A stretch of DNA of 63,891 nucleotides, counting the filler, from Folioceros fuciformis (lineage: Eukaryota), in the NCBI GenBank assembly GCA_049999805.1. It is 5 parts of 4 records of this genome, joined end to end, with 100 filler letters (N's around TTAATTAATTAA, not from the genome) between each part and the next. Parts side by side here need not be neighbours in the genome. Positions count along the whole stretch, not along the records: positions 40,902 to 57,811 come from JBNGIO010005937.1; 4 more parts are not named here. The stretch is one strand, 5' to 3'. The notes under the pieces were generated by a model. The model was not told the origin of the DNA. It searched no databases and worked only from the letters and a program-made list of their open reading frames with translations. Below are positions 28,955 through 63,631 of the stretch, one piece after another (positions within the stretch are counted from its first letter, which is position 1; every line of letters starts with the position of its first letter). A program made the position numbers and the translations under genes.

Positions 28955-31900
28955 AAGAACGAAGCTATGGGATGCTAGGAGCCTCTCGGCGATGGAGGAG
29001 GCGCCGGGCAGGGGCTAGCTCGGTGGCTCTACGGAGGCGATGAGCCCCCCACGGAGGAGCTCAACAGTTGGCATATGGGCGGCAGTGGTCGGTTTGTGTG
29101 CTAATAAACAGAAGGTGCGCGGGGAAAACGCGGTGGTGACGGAATCTAATCAACCTTACGTTGGCCTGACAAAAGCCGCGACAAAGGATGACTCGCAGGT
29201 ACGGACACCTGAGGTGAACTATGCGAAGGATCAGGTACGGGCGGACTCTTCTCAAGATTATGCCTCAGGTTCAGCAAAAGAGGGTATAGGGTTACAGCTC
29301 GGTCCTCTGGTGGACGTGCTCACCGAAGCGCTATTTTTTCAAAAAGAGGAAGACAATCTTGCTTCCAATTCAGTCGTGGGGCGGCTTCTATCGGGAGGTC
29401 CTCCTACCGTGGAGGAATTGGAGGACTGGGTGGCACAAGTTACGGGTTGCCCTCCAACGTATGTCTTCTTAAAAGCATATGGTTCTTTCCAGATTAAGTG
29501 TGACGAGGCAGCTGGAGCCCATGCTCTCTTGCAAACAACAAAGTCATTTTGAGGATCTATCCCGGTGTTGGAGGCCTGGTCTCCTTGGAGTACGATCATG
29601 CAATCTAAAATCAAGCGGCACTTTTTGTGGGTGGGTCTCCCAGCCTTGCCTGTTCAACTCGTCCCAATGATCCACCAGATGTTGGAGACCATTGGCAGGG
29701 TGGTGGAAAGTTCCTAAGGTGGATTCTCAATTCTTCAATAGCAGCAAGCCACCACGTTTTGGTGTAAGAGTGGATAGCCTTCTCGCTTTGCCGGAAGGTG
29801 TTGTCATCCGTGATCCAGAAGATCCCTCTAAAAGTTTCATGCAGCTCTTTGATTAGCCCGATCTGCCTATTAGGTGTGGAATGTGTGGTGTGCAAAACAA
29901 TCTTAAGCGAATGTGCCCTCTTCGAGCCGGAAAGGGAAGCGGGAGTGACAAAGCTAAGACGAGGCCTTCAGGCCCGCTACCTGGTTTTAAAGGTGCTCCT
30001 AAGAGGTCTTGGAGGACTAACCTTGGAGCGCAACAATGGGCAAGCAAGGTGCAACACGCTTTCTTCTCGGGGAGCGCTGGTGTAACCAACACGCAGATTA
30101 AAATGTGTGCGCTCTTGAGGAAGAAGGTGGATAAGACTTATTTCTACTAGATGCCGAAGGGCGGGAAGCTCAGGGCCTTGCCTACACGCTCCTTCCAGCT
30201 AGGGGCATCGTTTGGGGATCAGCTCCCTACTCTTTGGAGTGCAGTTACATTGAAAGTTAGGGGCATGCTACAGGCGAGCCTGAGGTTTGATGACCAAGCC
30301 GTGAGAATGTCTCTTCTATATGCAAGACAGAGTATATGGTGTGTCACAGACTGGATGATAGTTCCTCCATCTTATATGTGACCACACTGATTGAGCTGAG
30401 CGAGGAGTGCCGTCTTCGAGACGTTAACGGGTCGCAATGGAGGGGGGAACCTCAAGTACTGGCTTGTATCAAGGATGCAAAGTTTGGCAAAGGTAGGGTT
30501 ACTCTCACTTCTCGGGTGATCTTCAAGGCTCACCTTGGTTTTTTGGGCCTTCTCACAGCCCCGATCTCTATCAAACTCCCAAGCACTTGGGAGCTCAAAC
30601 GGGAAGAGCATTTGGTGGTAGAAGATGTTGTTCCTATGGAGGAGGACCCTAGTAGTGTGGAGCATGATCGGAGGGTTGGTTTGTCTCCAATAGGTGGGCT
30701 CAGTGATCCTTTTAATTAGAACAAGGTTATAAGCGGGGAGCCCGCCCAAAGGAAGGATGACCACCACCCTACCTGTCCCACAGTAACACAGAACTCCTTA
30801 GGAGGCTCCCTGGAAGCAATCCTTGTAGAGCTAGCAGCAAAGTCGGTGTCCCAGGGAAGGATTGCGAAGGGTGGGGTCTTCACCGTAGTGGACAAGGTGG
30901 CAGCCCAGCGAGTATTAAGTCAAGCTCGCTCATCGGAGAACCCCAGATCGGGGCGGATTGCATGGCGGGTCGCTCAAGGGGGAGTTCAGAGGGAGGGCCA
31001 ACGACCCAAGGTAGGGGAACGCACAGGGCCTAATGCTAGGCTGGAGCTTGGTGAGCAGGTGCCACACCAGGAGGGTGTTGACGAGCGCTTGGGTTTCCCT
31101 GACTGCATGCAGGTGACAAGAGTCAAAGTCGGTCCTGAACACTCTGAAGGACTAGGGGCAAACACTGCTCAGTCGGCCCAGCAAGGAGGTGTGAGCCGTA
31201 TAGTGGTTGAGCCTCACGAAATGGGAAGGGCGGCGCAGGATGGTGACTTCGGGGTACCTCAGGGTGTGGGGCGAAGCGCAGGGAGGTTGGCTCAGGATAG
31301 CTCCTTATCCCGGCTTCTTGTGGCGCAGCTAACCGGCTACTCAGAGTCGGGTTCAGGACCCCCTTCCTCACCGCCAAAGGTGAAGGATGGAGCAGCGTCT
31401 CGGAAGGCGTTGGTGTGGGGCTCAGTAGGTGAGGAAGCAATGGGCAAGCACGAGGACTTACAACTCTGGTGGTAGCAGCAGTCCGCTCAAGAGGTTTCTG
31501 GCAACGAGCTTGCCCGGGAACGATGCGTTCGACCGGTTCCCAAGACTGATGGTGAGTGGACTGGGGATGTTGCGGCGAAGGTACTGCTGGCCGGTGGTGC
31601 TAGGGCCGCAGAACAGCCAAAGCAAGTCCTGCCAATGTTCAAGGATCAGCAGGACGCAGGAGCACGAGCTCCATCACTGCTGAATCACGACGATTCTAGT
31701 GTAGAAGGAAAAAGACAGTTCTCGGCTTTGGATTTGGCAAACGAGGAGAGCAAGGCAGGGGTAGCGGATGATTCTGAAAAGCTAGGAGCGCTTGCGCTCC
31801 TGTCCAGGAGGAATCTTAAGCTGGCAAGCGGTTAGGCACGATCCAACGTATCTCCTCCAGAAATGGTGGAAGGGAGATATGGGGAAGTGATGCAAGAATT

Positions 31901-34900: not shown

Positions 34901-37900
34901 CTCTAGACCTTAAAGCTAATAATTAGCTGTCTCGGTCTAGACTCATGTCTGGGGCTAGGATGCCTAAACCTGCTGCGGTCTGGAAGCTCCCAAGCAAACC
35001 CTGATAAATGGGTCTCGACACCTTAAAACATTATGAGAGGGGGACACACCTGCAAGTCATCTCATGGAATGTGAGGGGTTTAGGGGGATGGTCAAAGACA
35101 GCTTCAAAGTGTACGAGGTTGAAGCACCTGTTAGAAGAGGATGTCACTTGGGATGTTGTTTGCCTGCAAGAGCATAAGCTCTCTATGGAGCATATCCAAA
35201 AAGTGAAGAAGCTCTTCCTTCCAGGTCGAACTGAATGGGTGGCAGCTAGAGTAGAGGAAGCAAGAGGAGGGGAATCTCCGACTCAACGAACATCAGCAAC
35301 CCCGGGGGGGTGTCCATAACTGTTCACCCAGAACACACTCACAATATCTTGGAGTCGGGTCAAGATGAGGGTGGTAGGTTTGTGTGGCTGGTGCTACAAA
35401 CACCTTAAGGCCCACTCAGCATCTGTAATATTTATGCCCCCAATGCTGCCTCTGACAGGAGTAGTCTCTGGGGTAGGTTGGGGGAATAGTTGGATGAGCA
35501 GATACCGTGGATGTTGGCTGGGGATTTCAAATTTGTTGAAAGATGGGAAGATATTCGAGGAAAGAGCCCAATAGATATTCGGATGGTGCCCATGTCTTGG
35601 CAGGAACTGAGAGACAATGTCTTGGTTGTTCAGGATCCATGGCTGGCCCTCCCAGCGCACCGTTAGCCGCAATCCTTGAAGTTTAGCTAGACTAACCAAC
35701 AGCAACAGAATTTGGGAGCGCGCAAATTGGACAGATTCTATGTTCCGTCTGGTTGGTTATCCCTTATGCAGTCATATAGTATCCTTGCTGGTTTAGGGTC
35801 ATCACCCTATTAGCTTGCACTTGAGGCTTGCCCCTGCCTCGGAGAGGCAGAGGAGGCATATGCAAAACTTCGGATGAACACGTCCTTACTTAAGGAAAAA
35901 GGTGTGTTCAAGGAGGTCAAAAACATATGGCAGGGAATAGAACAAGGGGAAGAGCCTGCTGTGTCCAGATTGATATGTGCTAACAATGTCGCGACTAGGT
36001 ATTTGAGGAAACGGGGGGTTCAAAGGGCGAAGGAACTACGCCAGCAAGAATGTTTTTGGAGAGAGGAACTAGGCTGGCTACAAAGGAGTTGTGAGGAGCG
36101 GGACTTCACAATCGAAGAAGAAGCTCGAAATACAGAGGTGCAGTGTGCCTTGGCTAAATTGGAAGAAGACAGAGCCAGAGGGTGGTTTAAACGGGAGAAG
36201 GTTAAATGGGTGAACGAAGGGGACGGTCTGTCTAAATTCCTTTTCGATAAGGGGGCTGCTAACCGGCAAAGGTTGCGCATCCCTGCTCTCTCGGACGCGC
36301 AAGGAGTGGTGCAGGAGTTGCTTGAAGGTTTGAAAAAACTCATCACCTCTTCTATGTGGGAATTTTTTCTAGCGTTGGGAAGGTGGTAGGGCGGGAGCGA
36401 CTATGGGCGTCATCCTACGGGTCACTTCCGGCTAAAGCTTCTGAAGTCCAACGTCGGGAGCTGGATAAGCTGATTACTGCAGATGAAGTGCTCCAGGCTA
36501 TGAAGGGGATGCCAAGGAATAAATCCTCGGGTCACGACGGTATCTTGCCCGAGTTTCTGCTGTGGGGGTGGGAGTTTATGCAGCCTTTATTCATGGAGGC
36601 GGTGGACATGATCTGGGAGGAAGGCAGCATGGGGAGTTGGTTTAACATGGGGGTCATCGCCTTGCTCCCTAAGCAGGACACCAGTTTATCGATCTCTGAT
36701 TGGCATCCAATCACCTTGCTTACAACTACGTACAAGGTGATAGCTAAGGTTCTAGCTAACCACATTAAGCCTTTTCTGGATGATTGGATTGAGAATAGAT
36801 GGGGGTTCATCTAGAATAGATGCATCTTGGACAACCTTCTACTCTTGCGGGAGGCTAAGTATAATACGTAGGTTTAGAAGAAAGCTGCCGTTTTCATTTC
36901 CCTGATTTTTACAAGGCTTATGATTCCATTGAGTGGCACTTTTTGTGGAGGTGCTTGCATAGCTTTAGGTTCGGGAATACCTTCTGTAGGTGGATCGCCT
37001 TTTTGTGTGAAGATGCAGGGGCCAAGGTTGCGGTCAATGGAACCTTTACGGAGCGGTTTGGCATTCATCGGTCGGTACGTCAGGGTTGCCCCTTTGCTCC
37101 ATTCTTATTTATTATTGTTATTGACTTCTTCCTATGAGCAGTTAAATAAGGCCAGGCAGTCGAGGGTATTCGCAACCTAGACAGATCGCAGTTAAGGGTC
37201 TCTGCCTTTGCAGACGATACTCTTCTTTTTTCCTCGGCAGAGGAGGCCTCTTTGAAAGCTTTGCTCCAACAGGTCAAGGTCTTTGGGGAATTGTCGGGGT
37301 GCAAGGTTAATTGGAGTAAGACTTGTATGATGTGTCTGCACATGGAAGGGGAGTTACCTCCATGCATTCGACACATTCGAAGGGTGATGCAGGGGTGCTC
37401 TCACAAATATCTAGGACTTCCCTTCCATGAGGGATATGAGAACAGTGAGATAGGTAAGTATGTGTGCCTCAGATTCATTCGTAAAGTGCTGAGCTTGCAA
37501 TTGTTGGAGCTTAACCTTGCAGGAAGGTTGGTGGTGAATAATCACATTCTATCAGCCTCGCTATGGTATTATTTGTTCTTGTGGGCCCCTACCAAGATAG
37601 AGGTGAAACGGTTGCAACAAGTGTTGACCTCTTTCTTGTGGAAGCGTGCGGGGGATAGCTCGGCTAGGTGCTCTAAGGTGGCTTGGCAACACATTATTTA
37701 GGCATGTAGTTTGGGGGGGCTTGGGGTGGTTGATTCGGTTGCCAAGATGAAAGTCTTGCATGCTCAGTGGGTTGTTAGGGCGGCGGATCTTGCCTACTAC
37801 CCCTGGAAGAGCCTACTAACACAGCATCTGGAGTGCACCCAAGCTGTCACTAGGGGAAGGAGGTCTATCGACAACATCCTTGCTGATAAACCACTTCTTG

Positions 37901-39590
37901 ATATGGCAGAGTGCTCCCCACTATTCAAGTCAATCTGGAGTAGCTACTTAGAGGTTAAGCAGTGCATTATCCCTATTAACCCTGTGCATGTTGATGATGT
38001 TCTGGGTGTTCCTTTGCAAGGTTTCTCGAGGTTGTGGGCTCAAGAGTTTAGGGCAAGGGTGTATTGGTCACAAATCTTCGGATTGGCGTGTCGGCAAGGT
38101 GTTATCCAGCTTGGTCACTTATGGAATAGAATAGAGGCCCGCTGGATGGAGGTGGAGGAAGTCAAGGGTGAATTTGGATTAGTAACTAGACATGTTAGGC
38201 TCATTTTTTCATGGCTGCAAGAGGGGTTGGAGGATAACGTACAACAGGTGTTGAGGCAACAACCTACTCGGGGCGCCAAGGGGTGGTATGCGTACTCCAT
38301 GGATAGTAAGGGAGTCGACTCTGAGGAGGATGAGCAGGAGGATGACCTAGAATTGGATAGGGCAGTTTGGCTTACAGTTACGGCTGACAAAGAAGAATTA
38401 CGGTCATTCAAGGTCTTATCGCCTGAAGGGCTTTTGGGAGATCAGGGCAGGGATGATGGTGATATCCGAAGAGAGGAACTAAGGGCCATCACGGTCCTCT
38501 CAAAGTCTGTTCGCACAGGGCGGTGGTGCACTCAAGTTGAACGTTCTAGTGGGCCACAAACCTCGGTCAAACCAGTCGTGCGATGTTGGTTTCGGCTCGA
38601 TGAAAATTGGGATTTGGCCTTAAGACCAGATCTCTACAAATGGCCCGGGAGGCCAGGGTGCAAAGCGGTCAACCTTCGGTCCTTCTTCAACTTCCCAACG
38701 GCAGACATCTTCCTCTGGATGGTACGAGCGCAGAAACTCAAGCAATGGCAACCAATGGCTCCTAGGTTACAGTTATTTGTGAGCCGACTAAGGGAAGCTA
38801 TCAAGTTGCTTTGGAAGTCAGTAGGTATTCCTCCCAAGGTTAGGGCAACAGTTTGGTGCTTTTTTCAAGCTTGTTTGCCTAATGCGGATCGCTGGGATGG
38901 GTTGTTGGTTGCTACGGGAGAAGACCAGTGTCGACTGTGCTCCTCTGGTGCCCCAAACAAAAGCCATTTCTTCCATTGTAGTTTTGCCCAAGAGGTATGG
39001 AGTGAGGTGGGCAGTTGGTTGCTAAGGATTCCCCCTGGCACCAACCTCAGGATCACGAAACATACTGCCCTCTTTGGGTTGGATTCAACCTCGGGCAAAG
39101 CTCTACTTCAGGTGCAATGGTGGGGTTTACTATTGTCTTCTTGCCTTTTTCATCTTTGGGTCAACTTGTTTGCCGTGGTCTATGGAGGTAAGGAGCCAAC
39201 CTCGTCTAAGGCTCTACTTTGGCTCCTTTGGGAGCATATACTAATTGCGACAGAAAGTCTAGGCAGTCCTATCGCAAACAGTTCAAACGGAGCGAATGGA
39301 GGTCGGCAGGCTTCCTAGTTACTAGGACTGACGATCACTGTAATCAAGCCTGCCCTTGGGGAAGGTGAGCCCCATGGCCCTCGGGGGATTTTGAGGGTGA
39401 AGACTAGATGGTCTTTGCAGTCCGTTATTATCAAGGTGGTGGGGAGCCTTCCCCTCGCCTGTCCAGAGGGCTGGGCACTAGGTCCATTTTCCTCCCAATC
39501 TTGTGCCCATGCTATGTAAATATGTAGGCAGGGGTCCCCTTAGTATTATAAGAGGACGAAAATATTAATCTAAATATTTTCTTCACGAAA
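28955..39590 (+). mobile_element. Full-length but degenerate L1/Tx1-type LINE (~10.6 kb) with 15-bp target-site duplication
   Basis: TSD aaaatcccacatgat at 28940-28954 and 39591-39605; A-rich 3' end; ORF1 has a DUF4283-like region and zinc-knuckle remnant; ORF2 from 35008 has APE endonuclease (SWNVRGLG, CLQEHKL), RT (KSSGHDG, PITLLTTTYKVIAKVLA, RQGCP, FADD) and zf-RVT (CRLC...HFFHC); many stops and frameshifts. Confidence 0.93.
35008..39318 (+). pseudogene. LINE ORF2 (APE endonuclease - reverse transcriptase - zinc finger), disrupted
   Basis: Collinear ORF fragments 35008-35319, 35874-36389, 36356-36814, 36943-37137, 37252-37701 and 37711-39318 carry the EN, RT and zf motifs. Confidence 0.88.
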
Positions 39591-47035: not shown

Positions 47036-47863
47036 TCAACTGCCCAGAGCGGGAGGCCGCTCCAAGTGTAGTCCAGGTTTGGGCCGGGTGAAAGACGCTG
47101 GCACTCTGCTCTCGCTCCTGGCTTTCCGTTCCTCCTGGAACCTGGCCCATCTCGTCTCCCTCAGTTGGTGGGGCATGAGCTTCGATGTCACACGTCGAAA
47201 CTTGTCCTTCGACATCACCCTCAACCTCGCCAGTTCCGCCTCCTGTTCGCCAGTCATCTCCTTTAAGATCACCGTGAGGTGGCAATGCGGCCGCCTCATC
47301 TTCCCGCTTCGACCCTTGGCATGGTATGACATCCGTTTCAACATTTGACCCTTGCCTACGAATGCCTCAGCAACCACAAGCCGCTCCTTGTCCAGGCCGT
47401 GGTTGTGGATGGCATTGGCTCTCGCGGAGTGCACTACCTTGTACACGATTTTGGCTGCACGCTTAGGAAGAACTTGCATCTGCATGAGAGCATCCGTGCA
47501 GCGCATGCCGCGGACAAGAGCTGCAACCAGATTCACCTTTTTAGGGCTTATTCTCACCTCCGACAGCACTGCCCTGGCGAAGTTCTGAGTACTGGCGGAC
47601 TTGGCACCGTCCTCCAGCGGTCCCGGAGCTTGAGAAAGAGGAGACCTCACCGGCTCTACTGACTCCCCTCCCGCGCTACGTGGAATCTGACTGCTGGATG
47701 CCAACCCTGCTCGCATATGAAAAAATCCCGTCCACCCTCCCCTACATGGCCATGACAAAGCCCCTTCCTCAGACCTCAGCAAAGCACCACGCGCCCCTTC
47801 CGCATGGCTCAACTTCCTAAGCTGTTGCCGAACAAGGGGCAGCAGCCGACGCCAAGTTGCCAT
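47036..47863 (-). CDS. RPL22: Mitochondrial ribosomal protein uL22 (nuclear-encoded, intronless CDS)
   Basis: Arg-rich presequence MATWRRLLPLVRQQLR; L22 core ISPKKVNLVAALVRGM..DALMQ...VHSARANAIHNHGLD..RLVVAEAFVGKG...YHAKGRSG...PHCHLTVIL. Confidence 0.93.
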   Translation of the reverse strand: MATWRRLLPLVRQQLRKLSHAEGARGALLRSEEGALSWPCRGGWTGFFHMRAGLASSSQIPRSAGGESVEPVRSPLSQAPGPLEDGAKSASTQNFARAVLSEVRISPKKVNLVAALVRGMRCTDALMQMQVLPKRAAKIVYKVVHSARANAIHNHGLDKERLVVAEAFVGKGQMLKRMSYHAKGRSGKMRRPHCHLTVILKEMTGEQEAELARLRVMSKDKFRRVTSKLMPHQLRETRWARFQEERKARSESRVPASFTRPKPGLHLERPPALGS

Positions 47864-49216
47864 CTCCTGGACAACTAGCAACCTTCAATGCCGACTCCGG
47901 CCCTCCCCGCAGTCGCCTTACAGCAAGGCCATCTCCTCGTCGCAGCTCCCGGCATCCCTCGAATACAATGCAAATCTTATGCGATCGATGGCCGTGGCGC
48001 TTAATCCAGGATTCGGACTCGCTCGCCGGTGAGAAAACAGCGATGAACCCTAACCCGCTGATAAACCCTGACACCCACCCTACGGGAGGGCGACTAAAAT
48101 GATAGAACATCTTTTTTCCCTCTACACGCATGTTATACGCTGCACAGCTAACTAGTTCCATGTAATGGAGATTAGCACAGCAGTCCAGGAGGGGGCAGCT
48201 TTTGCTGGCCTCGGAAACAACAATGAAGCGGAGGCCCAGATTGCAACAGGATATCTGCCTCCAGCAAGCAAGACGCAAGACGCCCCGGCGGCCTCTTCGA
48301 TGATATGCTGCAATCATAGAGCACTCTTGTCCTTCCGTGTCAGCACGGTGGTTTCAGCCTGGACGGCATGATCGCAGCTGCCATGCAATTGGGTCCTAAT
48401 TCTACATTTTGCTTTTGCAATTTCGGCAATTCGTGTAAACCCCTGCAATTAGCGCAGCGCAACGTTTGCAAAACAGCCCCGCTTTCCTTGACTTCGCCTT
48501 AAGCTACTGCTCTGGTTCTGGTCGCGCTGCCAGATGTCCTGTTTCAGCTCCGCCGCCCTGGCACAGTCTGAGCTGAGCTTCTCTTGTGCGGCTCAGGAAA
48601 TGGTTTGAAAGCTCAGGACTTGTGCACCGGCGGCTGGAGGAGCGGGCTGTCTTCGCTGCACGCTGGTGTTTGATCCTGAGGTGCGGCCGTAGTTGGATGA
48701 GCTGCATCAAGCTGCTGCAGTCCTCCAAGCCCTCTAACTGCCAGGTAAGGTGTAGCTTGTGTGGCTAGATCCAAAGTGCCTTTCCGTTGTATGCAGCAAT
48801 TGGTTGTTAGTTTCCGGATTTCCAGCTTTGCCTCGCACATGTGTGTGCGTTTTGGAAAAGCTCGTGACTTTTGCGGTGCTGGCAGTTCGTGTCTGTCGTA
48901 CCGGAGATTTGCATTTCTGATGGACGTTACCGTCCTTGTCCGATATCGATCGGATTTTTTTATGTGAGATTTTGGTAGCGTGTTTTAGTGTGGGTGGAGA
49001 GGAGTGGGAGATGAAGCAGCAGCGTGCACCTTGAGTCGAGTCGGATTGACTTGATGGAAAAGTCGATTAGGTCGCGCAAAGCAGCAGATAGGTTTAGGCA
49101 TTGCCTAATACTCTGGTTAGGGTGGCGATTAGTATGCTTCTGCACGTTTTAACTCCTGGAAGATTGTGTGTGACGTGAATCAGGTGTCGTTGAGGTTGGA
49201 ATGATCTGGTTTGCCA

Positions 49217-50971
49217 ATGGTGAACTTCAAGGAGCTCAGAGTATTGTCGATGAGAGGGTCAGAGAAGGTGCTGATAGGAGCTGTTCGATGCCCTCTGGAT
49301 GCCACATTTGGGGTGGTGCGCAAGGAGATTGAGATGGACGAGCTCGTTTCTTACCCCTTTGACTTTGTTATTCTGGACAGTATTTTGAGAGGGAAACAGG
49401 AGGCAAGATGGCAGGTGCATGAGAATGAGGTGCACATAAAGCAAAGGTATGACATCCAGCCTGTGAGCAAAAGGCAATGCTTGGAGGATCCTCACAAGGA
49501 TGGAGTCTTGGATATGGAACACTCTCCTCAGACTGGGTTGGGAGAGGTTGCAGACTGTGAGAGCAACAACGAAAAACGCTTAGAGGCTTGCAAGAAAGAA
49601 CATGCCAGCTTAACTGAAAATCAGCTCAAGAGCAAACTTGTTCCATCAGACATTCTTCTCCGTTGGGAATGTGAGGCCGAGAGAGTGAGGGCTAGGTTGA
49701 CAAGCCGGGGGAGGGAGGACAAGTTTGACATCTACACAAGGGATGAAGGAGGTGAGGTGATCATCAAGGTTTGGTGCCTGGAATGTGGAAGGACTTACGG
49801 CTCTGGAAAGGATCCAGTCTCCAGTGCTTATCGGACCCTGTCAAACTTCCACCAGTCTCACATACGCAGCGCTACACACAGGGATAACTATGCTGCGAAT
49901 CATGGCGTGGACCCAGATGCGCTACCCAGAGCAGAGAAAACTCACAAGGAGGAAATTGAAGCAGCTATGCTTGAGGTGTCCAACTTCAACAGCTCTCACC
50001 CAGGAGCATCTTTTGAGATTGTGCAGCTGACCTTAGGTAACTTCAGCAACAAACATCATGTTTTCATGAGGTGCACACTTGATGACAAGTGGCTTAATCT
50101 TGTGCCCAAATGTGGCATGCCCACTGAGACAATTATGCTGCGCCATGTTCAGTCGACAGTACATGAAGTTGCCTTGTCTCAAAAATTGCAGAGTAGTAGA
50201 GCATTGGAGGAGCGAAAGGGCTTCGCTGGTGTAGGTGCTGCAACCCGGTTACCGGGACCTGGTGCTGGTCTGCATCAGCATCAATCAGAGGTGCAGCAGT
50301 GCAGGGAATCTGCAAAAGTCGAGTTCGACCAGTCAAGTGAATCAGGTAGTGATTGCGAGTTTGATGATGGTACCAGCAGCGGGGATGATGATGATGGTAG
50401 TGAGGAGGATGACAGCGAGGATCTCAGTGGTGGGCTCCTACTTTCATGCTCAGGCTCGGAGGTGGAGNNNNNNNNNNNNNNNNNNNNNNNNNNNNNNNNN
50501 NNNNNNNNNNNNNNNNNNNNNNNNNNNNNNNNNNNNNNNNNNNNNNNNNNNNNNNNNNNNNNNNNNNCGTCCGGCGAGTCAGAAGAAAGGTCATTTGCAT
50601 CTGGATCGCAGTCAGGGGAAGGGCAAGCAAGTGGGATCCACTCGTCTTCAGATCTTCTGGCTAACCTGTGCTGGGGATTGTGGCAACCGGAGGTGGAGAT
50701 CAATAACAGTCTGATGGCCGTCAAGAATCTGTTGGCAGATGAGAAGGGTGGTGCAGACTGGTGGGCTGAGCCACACGCCAACGCTTCAGTGTGTTGTAGA
50801 GGTAAAGTGTACACGATCAAGGGCTGCTTCAGGCACCGGAAGTGCGAGAGGCTGTCCCACGCAGATCCGTTTCCCAACCTGTGTTGCCCTCTGTGCAGAC
50901 AAATCCCCATGTGCACGGATTTCAGGGACAAGGCTGTGAGACTCGGGGGGCCACCGCATGTTGGTGTTTGA
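49217..50971 (+). CDS. Uncharacterised intronless protein with a putative ubiquitin-like N-terminus, C2H2/U1-type zinc fingers, an acidic tract and a Cys-rich C-terminus (spans an N gap)
   Basis: About 415 open codons before the gap and ~130 after; motifs WCLECG...SNFHQSHIRSATH, RCTLDD...LRHVQSTVH and CWGLW...GCFRHRKC...CCPLCRQIP. Frame across the gap is unverified. Confidence 0.65.
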   Translation: MVNFKELRVLSMRGSEKVLIGAVRCPLDATFGVVRKEIEMDELVSYPFDFVILDSILRGKQEARWQVHENEVHIKQRYDIQPVSKRQCLEDPHKDGVLDMEHSPQTGLGEVADCESNNEKRLEACKKEHASLTENQLKSKLVPSDILLRWECEAERVRARLTSRGREDKFDIYTRDEGGEVIIKVWCLECGRTYGSGKDPVSSAYRTLSNFHQSHIRSATHRDNYAANHGVDPDALPRAEKTHKEEIEAAMLEVSNFNSSHPGASFEIVQLTLGNFSNKHHVFMRCTLDDKWLNLVPKCGMPTETIMLRHVQSTVHEVALSQKLQSSRALEERKGFAGVGAATRLPGPGAGLHQHQSEVQQCRESAKVEFDQSSESGSDCEFDDGTSSGDDDDGSEEDDSEDLSGGLLLSCSGSEVEXXXXXXXXXXXXXXXXXXXXXXXXXXXXXXXXXXSGESEERSFASGSQSGEGQASGIHSSSDLLANLCWGLWQPEVEINNSLMAVKNLLADEKGGADWWAEPHANASVCCRGKVYTIKGCFRHRKCERLSHADPFPNLCCPLCRQIPMCTDFRDKAVRLGGPPHVGV

Positions 50972-52312
50972 CCCCAGTCCAGGTGTCGCGCATCGGCAAG
51001 CGTCGTGCACCCTTGGAAACTGGATGGATACAGGGAATTCCCGTTCTACGTTTTTGTCAAAATCGAAGGTTGAAGACAGTGGAACGAGCTTGTATGAAAC
51101 GTTTGTTTACAGGCTCACGGCTTTGTACTGTGGAAAGGGGAGACAACAAGGCAGTCTCACCGAGTTTTGTTAAGTCAACATCGTCGGGGTAGCAGACCAG
51201 ACCACGGAACCAGGCTGGTCCAGGATAGTCGTACTCAGGCTTTTCTTAGAAAATTGTTCCACACTTTTGCTAGAAAATCACTCACACACGCGGGGTGTAG
51301 CATTCTCTCTTTTGTTTGAAGTAAGATCTTGTTGTAAGCTGCTCTACCCCTACGTCACAAGGTAGGGGTAGAGCACAAGCTAGACTATGCGTGGAGTGGT
51401 TATCTAAAAAAAGCACACACTCCGATTATCGCGGGGACCACCCTGGTTCCATGGTCCGTCACCGGGGGGGTCGGGTTCTGGAATCTGGAATCTGGGCCCC
51501 CATGCCAGCCACCTGCAGAGAACCAGCTTCCGCTTGGCCTTCCTGGCCAGGGTAGTCGTGAGCGCGGTGTCATGTGTGTGAAATTCAGGGGAAGCGCTGC
51601 TCCCGCTCTCTTTCGTGCGCTCTAGCGTCCCACGTTCCGGGCTGGAGCTTTATATTCGGTAACCAGTTTCAGGCCTTCCTATTCTCCCATGTGCCCGGCC
51701 AGCCGTTGCTCTTCTTCGCCTGTTGTTGCTTCCTCGCCCGTCGCCGCTTCTCCGGCTTCCTTGACCTTCTTGATTCGGTCTGGCGGGAGCTTTCACGGCG
51801 TCCGCGGATCCTCCCTCTAAGGTGAGCAGCGCGCGTGCAGCGGATTTCAGTTTGCTTCTCCACTTTCTCAAATTTCAGTGGCGCCTTCCGCCATCTCTCT
51901 TGAAGAGAGAGATCGTTATGGCACGCCATTAATTCTCTTGCAATTTCCCGCGCTGTGAGCATCTGTGTCACCCCTGTGTGGCATGTTGGATTCGGCCACG
52001 CTGCATGCTGAGGACGTGTAGTCGGAATCCTCCTGTCTTGTGCCGCTTCTCATGTAACAGGTGTGTTGCTTGTTGTGTAGGTTTGAGGCCGAAGCATCGC
52101 GCGCGCTCGCTCCGTTACGAAATATTGGCACCTCTTCGGGCACCGACGTTTTTGCTTGTTAAGAAAGTTAACCCGTGAGTAGCTCAAGTGCGGGCTCCTT
52201 CTGCCTCAGCCTCAAGGGCCTCGGTTGGATACCAGGCTCAAGGTTGTTTGCTGCTGCTGCTCCTTCACTCGCGGTACTAACTGCTAGCCGTGGCTGTGTT
52301 CCGGGACAGGAA

Positions 52313-57911: not shown

Positions 57912-58378
57912 GGGCATCTGATGCTGACAGTAGAAGATCTATCTCAGCTCATTGCCTTATGCTAGGCAAAAGTGAAACTGAGTCAACAGTTATAGCTTGG
58001 CACTCTAAGAAGCAGCAAGTGGTGGCCCTTTCCTCCATGGAAGCTGAATATATAGCTACCACCACCGCTGCCCAGGATATAATCCATTTCCGAGAGCTGC
58101 TAACATCCTTGGGAGAGACACAAGCTGCACCAACATTACTCCTCAGTGATAATCAGTCAGCAATTGCTCTCACCCAAAATCCGGTAATGCATGCCCGCAC
58201 CAAGCATATAGAAATAAAACACCACTTCATTAGGCAAGTCACTTCAGAGGGACATGTTAGCTTACAATATGTGTCCACGCATGAGAACATTGCTGACTTG
58301 CTAACCAAACCTCTGCCCCAGGACAAGCATGAGAAATTCTCAAGAGCCATGGGGTTAGTGGAGTGTCCAAATACCTAA
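57912..58378 (+). mobile_element. Ty1/copia RNase H (3' end of pol)
   Basis: WASDADSRRSIS, WHSKKQQVVALSSMEAEYIA, DNQSAIAL..NPVMHARTKHIEIKHHFIR, NIADLLTKPL. Confidence 0.93.
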
Positions 58379-59929: not shown

Positions 59930-62591
59930 TGCAATGCGACTTAGGCGAGGGGGCGGTAGAAGTAGGGCGATGGGAGGTTGAGGCGTGATGATCTAATGGA
60001 TGCATTGAGCTCCCCATCGGGGGGCTCGACAGTCCACTCATGGGCACAAGTGGCCGGCATGGGTACAGACAGGCAGAATGGGCGGAATCCTAACAAAGGA
60101 ACGCATGCACCTAATACGGAGGTGCTTAGACGCAAGAAAGCAGTACCTGAGCAGGAGGCTCAGGTACGGACTCCCGGGAAGGACACCACTTGGGAAAGAA
60201 CAACTGAGGGCACAAGTATAGAGACGGAATCGGCCCCGGCAAATGAGGGGCCCAGCATCCAGCTTGGTCCTTTGGCTGACCTCCTTACCAAGGAGCGTTT
60301 TTTTCAACAGGAGGAGGTCAGGCTGTCGGGTAGCTCGGTGGTGGGGAGGCTCGCTGCAGGTGGGCCGCCCTCTATGGGCGATTTGGAGGCGTGGGTAACT
60401 CAGGTCACAGGGTGTCCTCCCGCCTATGTCTTCTTGAAAGAAGATGGATCCTTTCAGGTCAAGTGCGATGAAGCTGCTGGCGCTCTTGCTCTCCTGCAGA
60501 CAACTCTTCCCTTCAAAGGCATAACCCCGATGATGATTGAGGCGTGGTCTCCCGGAAGCACAATCATGCAATCTCAGATCAAAAGGCACTTTATTTGGGT
60601 GAGGTTGCCTGCCCTACTGGTGCAGCTCATCCCATTGATAGACAGGATGTTGGAAACAATTGGACGGGTGGTTGAGGTCCCGCAAGTGGATTCCCATTTT
60701 TTCGACAGAAGCAAGCCTCCCCGCTTCGGTGTGAGGGTACACAACCTCACTTCCTTGCCCACTGGGGTTGTGGTTCGAGATCCGGTTGAGTCGTCAAAGA
60801 GCTATACCCACTTCGATTACCCAGGGCTTCCTGTGAGGTGCGGAATCTGTGGTCTTTCTAACCATCTTAAGCAAGAGTGCCCATTCCGCTCAAGTGCAAA
60901 AGGAAGAAACGACAACTCTGAGCAAACCCAATCTATACCCCTACCGGGGTTTCAAGGTGACTAGAAAAAGCCATGGAGGGCAAGCCTAGCAATGCAATGC
61001 TGGTCCTGCCGAATTCAGGTCGAGGCCTTCCCGAGGTTTGCTGGCACTACTGTTATACAAATGAAGACTTGTGTAATCTTGTGGGAGAAGGTGGAGAACA
61101 CTTTCTTCTACTGGATGAGCGGACAGTTTGAAACTCCTCGGGTCGTTGAATCGGCAATGAAGCCCCTGGCTACTGGTTCTGAGGGAATGCTAACCGCGCT
61201 CTTGGGGAACACCCCAGGTTCTAGCGCAGTTCTTGATGAGCTGACGGTATTGCCCCCTCAGATGTTTTGTGAGGGTTTGGCTCCTGTGGGCTCAAACCAA
61301 GGGACAGGATCTGGCGCTCCTCGTCAAGCTGTCGGGGAGGAAGTGGGAAGAGTGTCTTCCAAGGGGCTTTTTGGGCTTCAATCTCTCGTCTTAGCGTGGG
61401 GGGACCTAACACTTCACAGCTTATCAACTCCGGGACATCAACCTCCCGGGCTTGGGGGGGACCCCGGCCATGCTTGAACCGTAGAGCTAGACGCAACATC
61501 GACTTACAACCCCACTACCTAGAAAACGGCGTCAACTTCTGTCTTGACCACAGGAGAGCAGAGGAGCTTGGAGGTGGCAGTAGGGAAGAGGACTCGTGTC
61601 TTGGAAGATATGGTATCATGACATAAACGGCAAGATTAGATTGCTGTTGCAAAGGCAAGGAAGGTGTTGAACAAAGTTGTTCAAGGCATGGCATTGCATA
61701 TCACCTTCCCGAAAGGGAAAAACATTAAGGTGCTGGAAGGGACAAGGGGAGGCAATAGGTCTCTTGGGAAGACGTTTGCTGGTGTGGGGAACGATCCGTT
61801 GGCAGTCTACGGTCACCACAAATATGGTGCAAGACTGGGGTCTGGATTGGATGGTAGTGGTTCTGCATGTCCCGGAAAAACCATGGTGGATTGTGCCAAC
61901 CCCTCTAACTGTGCTAGCCCCACCATGAGGGATAACGCGGTGTACGCTTTCGAGGAGGACCTTTTCTCCACCCCTTGTGCTGAGGACGATGAGGATATTG
62001 ATACTGTCTCGCATGAAGTGCAAGTAGTTTTCTCCGGAGATGAAGGAAGCACCTCTCCTCCTCCAGGGTAGGAGGATTCCGGCTTGCTGAGTGGCCAAGA
62101 GCTCAGGAAGGCGGAAGGTGCAACAAGGAGGAAAGGCAAACAGTTTGCGATCAACCTAACGGTTATGAGAAAGGTTCATGATTTTTATTCTTTTCTGGTT
62201 ATGATAGGAGGTGGGGGGGAGTAGCTACCCCTTACCATCACAAGACATCAATTGAATGCAGGGCAGGAACGGATCTTTGATTTCTTGTCTGCCGGAGGGG
62301 TTTCTGTAGGCAAGGAGGGAAAGGAGGTGGAATTCTTCAATGGTATCTACCAAAAGGATGGTAAACTCTTTGCTGACATCCGTCTAAAACAAGTTTATGG
62401 TCCCAATATGCCACTTATCCCATAGTGGAGGTGGTCCTTGGATGCGCCTTGGGCAAAAGACAGGGTATGGAGTCTAGACATGGCAATGGGGGGTGTTGAG
62501 AGGCCCTTAGATGGCCAAGACAAGAGGACTGTTCCTGTTGTGCACAAGTCGGAAAGGCTTCAAAGATTGTTCCTTGAGCTCAAAGCTAAGG
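59930..62591 (+). mobile_element. Second L1-type LINE copy: ORF1 region only, cut by the gap
   Basis: Homologous to the first copy (QLGPL.D.LT...FFQ.EE, VVGRL..GGPP, VTGCPP.YVFLK, KCDEAAGA.ALLQT); intact CCHC knuckle CGICGLSNHLKQEC; shared C-terminal block KEGKEVEFF.GIYQ. Confidence 0.88.
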
Positions 62592-63035
62592 NNNNNNNNN
62601 NNNNNNNNNNNNNNNNNNNNNNNNNNNNNNNNNNNTTAATTAATTAANNNNNNNNNNNNNNNNNNNNNNNNNNNNNNNNNNNNNNNNNNNNAGGTCTAAT
62701 GAATGAAGCATCGAAAGTTTCTCTCATACAATCGAAAGCAATGTCTTCACACGTGCGGTCCGCGTCTATATATGTGAGGTCCGGAGTGGGAAAAAACCAG
62801 CGCACTCATTTACGCGGATGTGTGGGAAGAGAGAAGGGGTGACACGAGGGTAAGTACGATAGATATTTTGATATGTTCTAGGGCCATTTATTTTTATCTT
62901 CTTGTCATAATGATAATGATAAGAAGATTATCATGTGCAATGATTGCACATGTTGTTTTCATTGTTTATGGAGTATGATCATGTCAATGTTGTACGATTC
63001 TAATTTTATTGTTTTGATTGTTTGTGCCACGCAGG

Positions 63036-63631
63036 AGGTTAGCAAATATACAAAGATGGTCACTACCGGTCGCCACCATCCTATTTGGAAGTACTACGAC
63101 CATGTGGAGTCGAGTGCATTCAAGACGTCGAAGCGCATAGTTTGCAAATATTGCAAAAAAAGCTTTGCGTACGGAAATTATCTGCGAGCAATTCAACATC
63201 TTGTCGAGGGGGGGAAGGATATGTCGAAGTGCAAAGTTCGTCCTCTCGCATTGAAGTTTGAGATATTGGAGGCTTGCGAAATTCTTGATGAAAAGGTATG
63301 TATCATTTACATTGGTTGTTTCATTGAACAATAGGTTTTAATGCTCTTCTGGTTGCCGGGTACTAACATGTCTAGCTAATCTGCATATGATTGTGGAGCT
63401 CAGCAAATTCAAATGAAGAGAGATCGCTACATACATGCGCAAGGAAAGCCAGCACATTTTGCTGCATCGAGAAATGGTATAGAAGCATCTTCTATGGAGG
63501 CCCTTATTATGAAGCCTGAAAATCATGCGGAAGAGATGTATGTACCTTTCATGGAAGCATTGGCTATGAAGACGGAGGAACATGCCGAGAAAGCAACTAC
63601 CGAGGGGGGACAGCATGCTAACCAAGATGTG
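63036..63631 (+). mobile_element. BED zinc-finger exon(s) of a hAT-type transposase or derived gene, interrupted by an LTR
   Basis: HPIWKYYDHV....KRIVCKYCKKSF......RAIQHL......MSKC fits the W..C2..H.C BED finger; bounded by splice sites. Confidence 0.7.

Follow-up and report, generated by a model that had tools for sequence, protein, structure and literature searches.

What kind of protein is encoded by the long open reading frame (ORF) that lies beside a uL22 gene in Folioceros fuciformis, and does that gene belong to its host or to a transposon? We addressed this within the window, by which we mean the whole stretch of DNA analysed (63,891 nucleotides). The ORF runs on the plus strand from ATG to TGA over 584 codons, counting an internal assembly gap of 100 N, and is the longest of its region. 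The long open frame described by the initial annotation is real, and so is the head-to-head arrangement with uL22, which lies on the minus strand with its start 1,344 bp from that of the ORF. The uL22 coding region is likewise a single uninterrupted ORF. Because 100 is not a multiple of three, continuity of the frame across the gap is arbitrary in the assembly itself; the reading frame is validated by the 553-aa relative P0003, to which both halves of the ORF align collinearly (272/386 and 76/117 identities). Further gaps are present elsewhere in the window. The ORF occurs there as a single copy, and its GC3 (0.53 and 0.61) lies within the 0.47-0.75 of neighbouring genes and transposable elements (TEs), so that GC3 is uninformative. 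The features of the locus are collected in Table 1.

Table 1. The ORF, its modules and its neighbour, in window positions; residue numbers are those of the protein ahead of the gap unless stated.
Feature	Position (nt)	Strand	Basis or remark
Whole ORF	49217..50971	+	417 known residues, 100-N gap, 133 known residues; collinear with 553-aa relative P0003
N-terminal ubiquitin-like (beta-grasp) module, aa 1-78 (predicted)	49217..49450	+	AF2 model, Foldseek; 54/78 identical to P0003
Basic K-R patch, aa 84-88, opening a disordered linker	49466..49480	+	K85 in 75%, R86 in 62% of 32 aligned rows
Helix, three-stranded sheet and two helices with finger 1, aa 144-229	49646..49903	+	pLDDT >90
Finger 1 putative ligands C187, C190, H215, H221	49775-49879	+	Conservation in relatives
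Second helix-sheet-helix module with degenerate finger 2, aa 243-336	49943..50224	+	AF2 model, alignment
Finger 2 residues C286, C299, H310, H316	50072-50164	+	Alignment
Disordered, acidic low-complexity tract (Ser/Asp/Glu) that extends into the gap	50330..50467	+	Sequence, AF2 model
Assembly gap, 100 N	50468..50567	.	Inside poorly conserved linker; about 15 residues there in P0003
Cys/His cluster, post-gap aa 34-117	50669..50920	+	67/95 identical to P0003
Short unconserved tail and stop	50921..50971	+	1/10 identical to P0003; relatives run on into the transposase part here
Neighbouring uL22 gene, bacterial-type (organellar-like), context only	47036..47872	-	Pfam Ribosomal_L22, E 1.3e-35

An exhaustive search returned 42 relatives of the window protein at E<=1e-3, and the description of it as an orphan was wrong. 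Thirty relatives were looked up and 17 of these are named, every one from a land plant (liverwort, lycophyte, two ferns and yew): Adiantum nelumboides contributes 8, A. capillus-veneris 4, Calypogeia fissa 3, and Diphasiastrum complanatum and Taxus chinensis 1 each, with no angiosperm or alga among these 17 named matches. The accompanying statement that the protein fits no recognised named family stands, Pfam giving no match below E 0.077. PDB was silent as well, both to sequence searches with the window protein (no match) and to a 45-sequence family profile (0 matches). The closest relative is P0003, at 70% identity.

From the sequence, the initial annotation had read a ~75-aa N-terminus with a beta-grasp pattern, an intact C-x2-C...H-x5-H finger, a degenerate second finger, an acidic Ser/Asp tract and a terminal Cys cluster, and each of these can be recognised in the protein. 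The AF2 model of the N-terminal module has pLDDT 92-98 and a beta-beta-alpha-beta-beta-alpha-beta topology, with strands at residues 4-13, 16-26, 48-52 and 71-76 and helices at 31-40 and 59-64. Ubiquitin-like (UBL) domains dominate its Foldseek list, with probability 0.9-1.0 and TM by target of 0.48-0.63 for the best matches, yet none reaches E<=0.001 (E only 2.6e-3 to 9e-2). Model topology and Foldseek matches agree, and we confidently assign residues 1-78 a predicted ubiquitin-like beta-grasp fold, a likeness of fold only that says nothing of conjugation. The linker that follows is poorly ordered in the model (pLDDT <50 for aa 83-115), and the K-R patch at its opening may be NLS-like.

The two finger modules differ in how well they have been kept. 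In finger 1, C187, C190, H215 and H221 are intact and each is conserved in 97-100% of 36-39 aligned relatives, N210 is conserved in 100%, and the surrounding region (aa 134-235) is identical to P0003 at 93 of 102 positions. At the position of finger 2, distant relatives keep C-x2-C...H-x5-H, whereas the window clade has lost the second Cys of C-x2-C. Profile-profile comparison of the two fingers is weak (hhalign P 7.9e-4, probability 24.8%) and suggestive only of modules that may be related by duplication. Tandem dsRNA-binding domains were considered for the finger region and not adopted, Foldseek matches to DGCR8, DRB4 and MLE having a probability of 0.10-0.33 and low TM. Residues 1-330 gave no usable match in ESM Atlas.

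Beyond the fingers, the acidic tract (aa ~372-417) is disordered in the model and poorly conserved, and the linker to which it belongs (aa 321-417) shares 39 of 97 residues with P0003. Conservation returns after the gap in the Cys/His cluster, where C34, H89, C92 and C106 (post-gap numbering) are among the residues invariant in 7 aligned proteins. A fold for this cluster, modelled from a seven-row alignment, was unusable (mean pLDDT 41.6). The cluster may resemble the CxC clusters of KDZ transposases and the piggyBac zinc fingers; Pfam matches to these are insignificant (E 0.55 and 0.077). In the tail, just ahead of the stop, GTGAGA at 50933-50938 reads as a candidate splice donor and, the tail being unconserved, a spliced continuation of the ORF into an unrelated exon is possible.

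What the cluster can be attached to becomes apparent from longer relatives. In P0056, a 717-aa protein of Calypogeia, both fingers and the Cys cluster share one polypeptide with a coil, an HTH-like segment and an RNase H-like domain; P0051 and P0055 have the same modules and continue into the start of the RNase H-like domain. In the fern protein P0011 the N-module is joined to a catalytic part that shares 47% identity with P0056 across 245 aa (E 1e-60). Alignments of the window protein match it to the N-terminal modules and the Cys cluster of P0011, P0051, P0056 and P0057, and in full-length relatives that cluster leads directly into the coil, the HTH-like segment and the RNase H domain. The initial annotation had likened the cluster to Zn-binding segments ahead of DDE transposases, and the cluster, together with all of the N-terminal architecture, does precede a DDE/RNase H transposase domain in the liverwort proteins P0056 and P0051 and in the fern protein P0011.

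The type of transposase was assigned through language-model features and predicted structure. Residues 320-736 of P0011 gave ESM Atlas feature matches scoring 0.94-0.95 and structural matches with TM by query of 0.68-0.93, in clusters that include THAP9; PF21787 is present in 90-100% of the members of the matched clusters and PF21788 in 56-97%. Directly on P0011, the Pfam match to PF21787 is weak (E 0.0022; 18.7 bits against a cut-off of 24.6), and P0056, P0057, P0055, P0051 and P0054 have no TNP-like Pfam match at E<=1. P transposase was not found in PDB by P0011, P0056 or a five-sequence profile. By features and predicted structure, the RNase H domain of the relatives resembles that of the P element and THAP9, an indirect assignment made on one fern protein, P0011.

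None of this catalytic machinery is present at the locus. The window protein and P0003 both end about 10 residues past the Cys cluster, at the place where P0035, P0051, P0054, P0056 and P0057 continue, and a search for longer fused forms with the Cys-cluster piece yielded P0003 alone among 81 candidates. The annotation had stated that no catalytic domain follows, and we found none in the ORF or in the rest of the window: the split RNase H domain (TNP-like_RNaseH_N/C) is absent from both, tblastn detected no catalytic remnant anywhere in the window (best E 0.37), and neither did a 571-position HMM run against 2,036 six-frame window segments (best E 2.8). The ORF contains no region corresponding to the GTP-binding insertion domain. 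The 12.9 kb downstream and the remainder of the window likewise show no similarity to the coil, the HTH-like segment or the RNase H domain.

What remains of the protein has diverged unevenly. Against P0003, the four folded modules are 69-91% identical (286/362) and the three linkers 30-53%, or 82/200 including the 10-residue tail (1/10), a difference between modules and linkers with a chi-square p of 2.7e-19. Neutral simulations run to 70% identity left 0 of 300 sequences free of stops, with a mean of 9.1 stops. These results lend indirect support to the view that the ORF has been kept intact by selection. In the family tree, the window protein and P0003 group together (SH-aLRT 100) and are sister (97) to two Diphasiastrum loci that likewise have no transposase part, one of which has five protein accessions in its annotation. 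Copies bearing the transposase part, or running on towards it, fall into two well separated clades, one of the fern protein P0011 and the other of Calypogeia and P0054. The tree is rooted at the midpoint only, has long branches that were flagged and is near a four-way split in its unrooted form; such a tree does not settle whether the modules passed from transposon to host or from host to transposon.

Homology to the transposase-bearing proteins, the common architecture, the absence of the nuclease and the maintenance of a frame with conservation focused on its modules are all direct results of these comparisons. From the maintained ORF, the domain-focused conservation, the lack of convincing flanking inverted repeats and the sister clade of annotated lycophyte genes, we infer domestication. 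The ORF probably encodes a putative DNA-binding protein that derives from the P superfamily, has no catalytic domain and is either host-exapted or a KP-like repressor. It would correspond to the front, non-catalytic half of transposases from a plant lineage of the P-element superfamily, with modules in the order ubiquitin-like, basic patch, two putatively related zinc-finger modules (one intact C2H2, one degenerate), acidic linker and Cys/His cluster, to which full-length relatives would add a coil, then an HTH-like segment, then a split RNase H domain that contains an insertion domain of P type. The retained modules may be the part of the transposase that recognises element ends and multimerises, standing where Drosophila P transposase has its THAP domain and leucine zipper. 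The RNase H domain is missing; the protein therefore cannot cut DNA and would act as a sequence-specific DNA binder. It might serve as a host-exapted regulator of transcription or chromatin, or as a trans-acting repressor of related elements in the manner of the truncated 66-kDa and KP proteins of the P element.

A different status is conceivable for the same protein. The ORF could still be part of a transposon, a deleted or truncated non-autonomous P-like element whose short transposase gene is kept as a helper or regulator of its family (KP-type) and is not a fixed host gene. In Calypogeia and Adiantum the family occurs in multiple copies and looks like a TE, occupying several loci, including truncated forms and, in one case, carrying a fusion to reverse transcriptase, and CpG in the ORF is depleted (observed/expected 0.44) as in the window's retroelements (0.21-0.60), the ORF flanks having 0.84 and 0.86 and uL22 0.71; TE-type methylation could be the cause. 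Drosophila KP proteins originate in exactly this way, according to the available text of one account (PMC7776569). We nonetheless consider continued mobility unlikely: inverted- and direct-repeat searches around the ORF found nothing convincing (the best spanning candidate is 21 nt with 76% complementarity), the 64 kb contain a single copy, which lies 1.3 kb from a housekeeping gene, the 70%-identical P0003 has the same truncation, implying long persistence of the form, and annotation treats the sister Diphasiastrum loci as ordinary genes. CpG depletion would also suit a dead relic that has stayed open by chance, but at the observed divergence not one of the 300 neutral simulations did so, conservation falls strongly on the folded modules and all four finger-1 ligands are intact, which makes a relic scarcely credible.

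The direction of descent might also be reversed, a P-type transposase of early land plants having taken up the entire coding region of an old host zinc-finger gene, with the window gene in the donor lineage. P transposases elsewhere have THAP and not the window-type module, in the available text of PMC7776569, so the module was acquired at some time, and the nearly four-way unrooted tree permits a root on the window branch. Against such a capture, which we regard as improbable, the transposase-bearing copies fall in two well separated clades with the window clade nested among them under midpoint rooting, the window protein stops about 10 residues past the exact point at which the transposase part of its relatives starts, and the 17 named relatives include no angiosperm or alga, unlike what an old, widely kept host gene would have. 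It is very unlikely, finally, that the gene model is incomplete and that the catalytic part is hidden by the assembly gap, by an error of assembly or by a long intron that extends past the window. The ORF does contain a 100-N gap, the window contains others and a candidate splice donor precedes the stop; however, the gap interrupts the acidic linker, ahead of the Cys cluster and not at the end, P0003 has the same end point in independent data, and the 12.9 kb downstream and the rest of the window are free of coil, HTH-like and RNase H similarity.

The reading as an exapted or repressor-like front half of a P-type transposase thus remains the one we favour, and we extend it only tentatively. 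The gene may be the first land-plant host gene to come from a P-superfamily transposase, out of an undescribed plant branch in which THAP was replaced by a ubiquitin-like module, two zinc-finger modules and a Cys/His cluster. Its nuclease-less form would have been fixed before the split from the lycophyte Diphasiastrum, and it would now be a predicted sequence-specific regulator or genome-defence repressor sharing a promoter region with uL22. In the available text of two plant TE overviews, six TIR superfamilies or seven DNA-transposon superfamilies are listed, with P not among the seven, and, according to one of the two, plants have yet to provide a demonstrated case of interference by inactive TE proteins (PMC9033089, PMC6839031). 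Our literature search for P-type elements or P-derived genes in land plants found no paper, a weak negative with Repbase and subscription journals outside its scope. If confirmed, these results would bring liverworts, lycophytes and ferns into the range of the P superfamily, there equipped with a new DNA-binding front end, and would offer, in the window gene, a tractable candidate either for a KP-like repressor in plants or for a new type of transcription factor.

New DNA-binding regulators are known to arise from transposases that have been truncated or exapted, and the P element is the classic example of self-repression through truncated proteins. Exapted transposase genes of plants, such as FHY3/FAR1 and MUSTANG (Mutator-like) and DAYSLEEPER (hAT), usually keep a disabled catalytic core. 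The window gene would be like them in being transposase-derived and kept by selection, presumably for DNA binding, without features of mobility; it differs in that its source would be P-type, these genes belonging to other superfamilies, and its core is wholly gone. The ligand pattern of finger 1 is similar to that of the BED C2H2 fingers of hAT transposases, with C-x2-C, a long spacer, H-x5-H and an aromatic residue before the first His, but the window finger is set in a larger helix-sheet-helix module. The BED zinc finger (PF02892) was rejected as an identification: it does not match the window protein at E<=10, and a control BED finger at 62882-63334 scores E 2.4e-6.

Drosophila P transposase and vertebrate THAP9 resemble the relatives of the window protein in the RNase H-type region, for which the nearest look-alikes by features and predicted structure are the TNP-like RNaseH_N/GBD families including THAP9, and the order of parts matches too, with a DNA-binding N-terminus, coil, HTH and split RNase H (available text of PMC7776569). 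In contrast to them, the window protein lacks the HTH, the RNase H domain, the GTP-binding insertion and the C-terminal domain, its N-terminus consists of a predicted ubiquitin-like module, two C2H2-type modules and a Cys/His cluster, and the hosts are land plants. No Pfam match to a THAP (C2CH) domain was found in the window protein, in which the conserved ligands are C2H2. There is also a parallel in form with the 66-kDa and KP proteins, truncated transposases that keep the DNA-binding N-terminus, have lost the catalytic part, do not cut DNA and repress transposition (available text of PMC7776569). The window protein is likewise truncated without a catalytic part, and by analogy it may have repressor activity. 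The 66-kDa and KP proteins arise within a single species, through intron retention or from mobile copies with internal deletions, whereas no element ends are visible around the window gene, which shares its truncation with a diverged relative.

The reading frame at 49217-50971 (+) runs from ATG to TGA and is the longest ORF of its neighbourhood, with 584 codons as listed; a stretch of 100 N (50468-50567) divides it into parts of 417 and 133 codons. Because 100 is not a multiple of three, agreement of frame across this gap is no proof of continuity by itself. The closest relative of the window protein, P0003 (553 aa), matches the two halves in the same order, at 272/386 and 76/117 identities, indicating that they belong to one protein, and has about 15 residues at the gap position, so that the gap covers just a short piece of poorly conserved linker. 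As the initial annotation had it, this long ORF lies head-to-head with the gene for uL22, the divergent starts being 1,344 bp apart. Its description as an intronless ORF among intron-rich genes held in part: other genes of the window are split into several ORF pieces, such as a RINGv-containing gene at about 9.5-13.9 kb, but the uL22 coding region is uninterrupted too. Directly before the unconserved last 8 codons and stop, GTGAGA at 50933-50938 could serve as a 5' splice donor; beyond it, no exon resembling the family was found in the window.

Searches of Pfam, PDB sequences and the ESM Atlas with the window protein itself found nothing. The protein had been called an orphan, and this proved wrong: phmmer, run exhaustively over 1.84 billion cluster representatives, returned 42 relatives at E<=1e-3, fourteen of them with E<=1e-10 and three with E<=1e-30. 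Thirty of the 42 were looked up and 17 of these carried species names, namely Adiantum nelumboides (8), A. capillus-veneris (4), Calypogeia fissa (3), Diphasiastrum complanatum (1) and Taxus chinensis (1). Short fragments make up many of the 42 matches, and in one fern copy the sequence is joined to a reverse transcriptase. Judged by such sequences, the family looks like a dispersed, decaying repeat family in the genomes of these relatives.

To describe the modules of the protein, we used alignments of relatives and an AlphaFold2 model of residues 1-417 (45-row alignment, mean pLDDT 79.1), in which pLDDT is above 90 for residues 1-80 and about 140-340. Residues 1-78 are modelled as a beta-beta-alpha-beta-beta-alpha-beta unit. 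Foldseek against the PDB gave no match to this N-terminal module at E<=0.001; ubiquitin-like domains (Dsk2, Get5, NLE1 and SUMO-like domains) dominate the list, with probability 0.9-1.0 and TM by target 0.48-0.63 over 75-91 columns, so the earlier beta-grasp-like reading stands at the level of fold. The proposed first finger is well conserved, with C187, C190, H215 and H221 each in 97-100% of 36-39 aligned relatives and an invariant Asn five residues N-terminal to the first His. The second had rightly been read as degenerate: distant relatives have C-x2-C...H-x5-H at this place, and the second Cys of C-x2-C has been lost in the clade of the window protein (the window protein, P0003 and the Diphasiastrum and Adiantum proteins). 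In the model, each finger is embedded in a unit of a helix, a three-stranded sheet and two helices, and the two units are weakly alike (hhalign P 7.9e-4). The acidic tract is also present, though poorly conserved and predicted to be disordered, and the C-terminal Cys/His cluster is conserved, with C34, H89, C92 and C106 (numbered along the post-gap piece) invariant in seven proteins. Ligand spacing in the window finger is like that of the Pfam BED finger, but the window protein has no Pfam BED match; the positive control was a genuine BED finger, at 62882-63334. For the model of residues 140-340 (49634-50236), Foldseek also lists the tandem dsRNA-binding-domain proteins DGCR8, DRB4 and MLE with probability 0.10-0.33; both modelled finger units share the order helix, three strands, helix, and any resemblance to dsRNA-binding domains is a low-probability one.

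Several liverwort proteins run on beyond the end point of the window protein. In one 717-aa Calypogeia polypeptide, P0056, finger 1, finger 2 and the Cys cluster are followed by a long helical/basic stretch, an HTH-like stretch and an RNase H-like region, which bears out the suggestion that the terminal cluster resembles segments preceding some DDE transposases. Two other Calypogeia relatives, P0051 and P0055, have N-terminal modules leading into the beginning of the RNase H-like region, and in a fern relative, P0011 (736 aa), the catalytic region comes after the N-terminal module. The catalytic regions of P0011 and P0056 are 47% identical over 245 residues (E 1e-60), their N-terminal parts 28%. 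In the ESM Atlas, residues 320-736 of P0011 gave feature scores of 0.94-0.95 and structural matches (TM by query 0.68-0.93) to clusters with TNP-like_RNaseH_N in 90-100% of members and the TNP-like GTP-binding insertion domain in 56-97%, a THAP9 cluster included. PF21787 was below the Pfam threshold in P0011 (E 0.0022), nothing transposase-like was seen in Pfam with P0056, and sequence and profile searches of the PDB with the relatives did not reach the solved P transposase. Assignment of the relatives' transposase part to the P superfamily is thus well supported but indirect. The transposase origin of the window gene is well grounded and can now be stated specifically. The nearest look-alikes of the P0011 catalytic region are Basidiomycota clusters (features 0.95, TM 0.93), ahead of animal THAP9-like clusters, a hint that, within the superfamily, a fungal branch may be nearest to the plant elements.

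The window protein and P0003 end about ten residues past the Cys cluster, where P0035, P0051, P0054, P0056 and P0057 continue. The earlier statement that no catalytic domain follows the cluster was confirmed in three ways: all family members map only to 49211-50938 within the window; tblastn at relaxed settings, with what lies beyond the cluster in four relatives as query, gave a best E of 0.37 in the window; and a 571-position HMM of the post-cluster part, run with filters off on 2,036 six-frame segments of the window, gave a best E of 2.8. Neither the gene nor the 12.9 kb that follow it therefore contains the nuclease, the HTH-like segment or the coil. Catalytic domain, insertion domain and THAP were each tested in the window protein itself, and each was absent. 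In a quick maximum-likelihood tree of 34 rows (midpoint root; long branches flagged by the program; rows <200 aa, the reverse-transcriptase fusion P0023 and redundant isoforms left out), the window protein pairs with P0003 (support 100), and the sister group of this pair (97) consists of two Diphasiastrum loci from different chromosomes that also lack the transposase part, one annotated with five protein accessions. Copies with the transposase part, or running towards it, fall in other clades.

Two results speak against a dead transposon relic. Identity to P0003 is 54/78, 93/102, 72/87 and 67/95 in the four folded modules, against 32/60, 39/97, 10/33 and 1/10 in linkers and tail (pooled chi-square p 2.7e-19). 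Simulated neutral drift to 70% protein identity by random substitution, with indels left out of account (which favours the null), introduced a mean of 9.1 stops, and 0/300 runs stayed open. Such a relic is very improbable, and these results suggest that the truncated form was kept by selection in two diverged lineages. Sequence comparison indicates a nuclease-less protein, apparently under selection, that retains every module upstream of the coil and HTH of its relatives.

A still-mobile transposon copy is unlikely for other reasons: the gene is single-copy in the window, has no convincing flanking inverted repeats (the best ORF-spanning pair is 21 nt with 76% complementarity) and lies close to a housekeeping gene. 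A TE-like state is nevertheless suggested by CpG observed/expected, which is 0.44 in the ORF and 0.21-0.60 in retroelements of the window, compared with 0.84 and 0.86 in the flanks (47873-49216 and 50972-52312) and 0.71 in uL22. The depletion is sharply limited to the ORF body, with GpC about 1.0, and could fit either TE-type or gene-body methylation. Domestication of the window gene is probable but unproven. Other features of the window are collected in the table.

Neighbouring gene and other features of the window
Feature	Position	Strand	Remarks
uL22, bacterial-type	47036-47872	-	Pfam Ribosomal_L22, E 1.3e-35
Inverted repeat, 22 nt	51200-51221 / 51435-51456		91% complementary, 213 nt apart; 230 bp downstream of ORF stop; with the hairpin, may be a small MITE-like insertion or 3' structure
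Perfect 14-nt hairpin, 8-nt loop	51340-51375		Inside the 22-nt inverted repeat
Two clearly similar ORFs	29019-29552; 59966-60964		Second has weak DUF4283 match (E 8.1e-6, just below cut-off); look like two copies of one repeat family, long ORF-rich stretches after each
LINE-like element	35800-39318		Long ORFs; RVT_1 E 5.5e-9 at 37150-37701
ORF directly after N run	57914-58378		By eye, looks like C-terminal end of copia-type polyprotein; no Pfam match; CpG o/e 0.21
BED zinc-finger ORF	62882-63334		E 2.4e-6; probably start of hAT-type transposase or derivative, at window edge

The best explanation, which we favour with moderate confidence, is a P-superfamily-derived front half without its nuclease, acting as a DNA binder that serves as host regulator or element repressor. 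The retained modules would recognise specific DNA, originally the element ends, and may bring about assembly, roles that fall to the THAP domain and zipper in P transposase. With the nuclease gone, such a protein would bind DNA without cutting it, and by analogy its role could be either regulation of the host or repression of related elements. More speculatively, the modelled ubiquitin-like module and the acidic tract might make protein-protein contacts.

Truncated or exapted transposases are a known kind of protein; as far as we found, this superfamily and front-end architecture are seemingly undescribed in plants. Searches of full-text literature (with Repbase, subscription journals and supplements outside their scope) turned up no publication about P-type elements of land plants. 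Sections of plant TE overviews count six TIR superfamilies in land plants or seven DNA-transposon superfamilies in plants, and P is not among the seven named there (PMC9033089, PMC6839031); one of them notes that no plant case has been demonstrated in which inactive TE proteins interfere (PMC9033089 / PMC6839031). In work on exapted TE genes of plants, THAP and P occur only in the reference list (PMC4948706). Drosophila P transposase, as outlined in one account, is ordered as THAP, leucine zipper, HTH, split RNase H with GTP-binding insertion, and C-terminal domain (PMC7776569). The plant relatives share this order except at the front, where the ubiquitin-like module, two fingers and Cys cluster stand in place of THAP. 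The window protein does not count as a P transposase in function; it is homologous to the non-catalytic region of proteins with a P-like core. According to the same account, the Drosophila 66-kDa and KP proteins retain the N-terminal DNA-binding part, bind to DNA of the P element and prevent transposition (PMC7776569).
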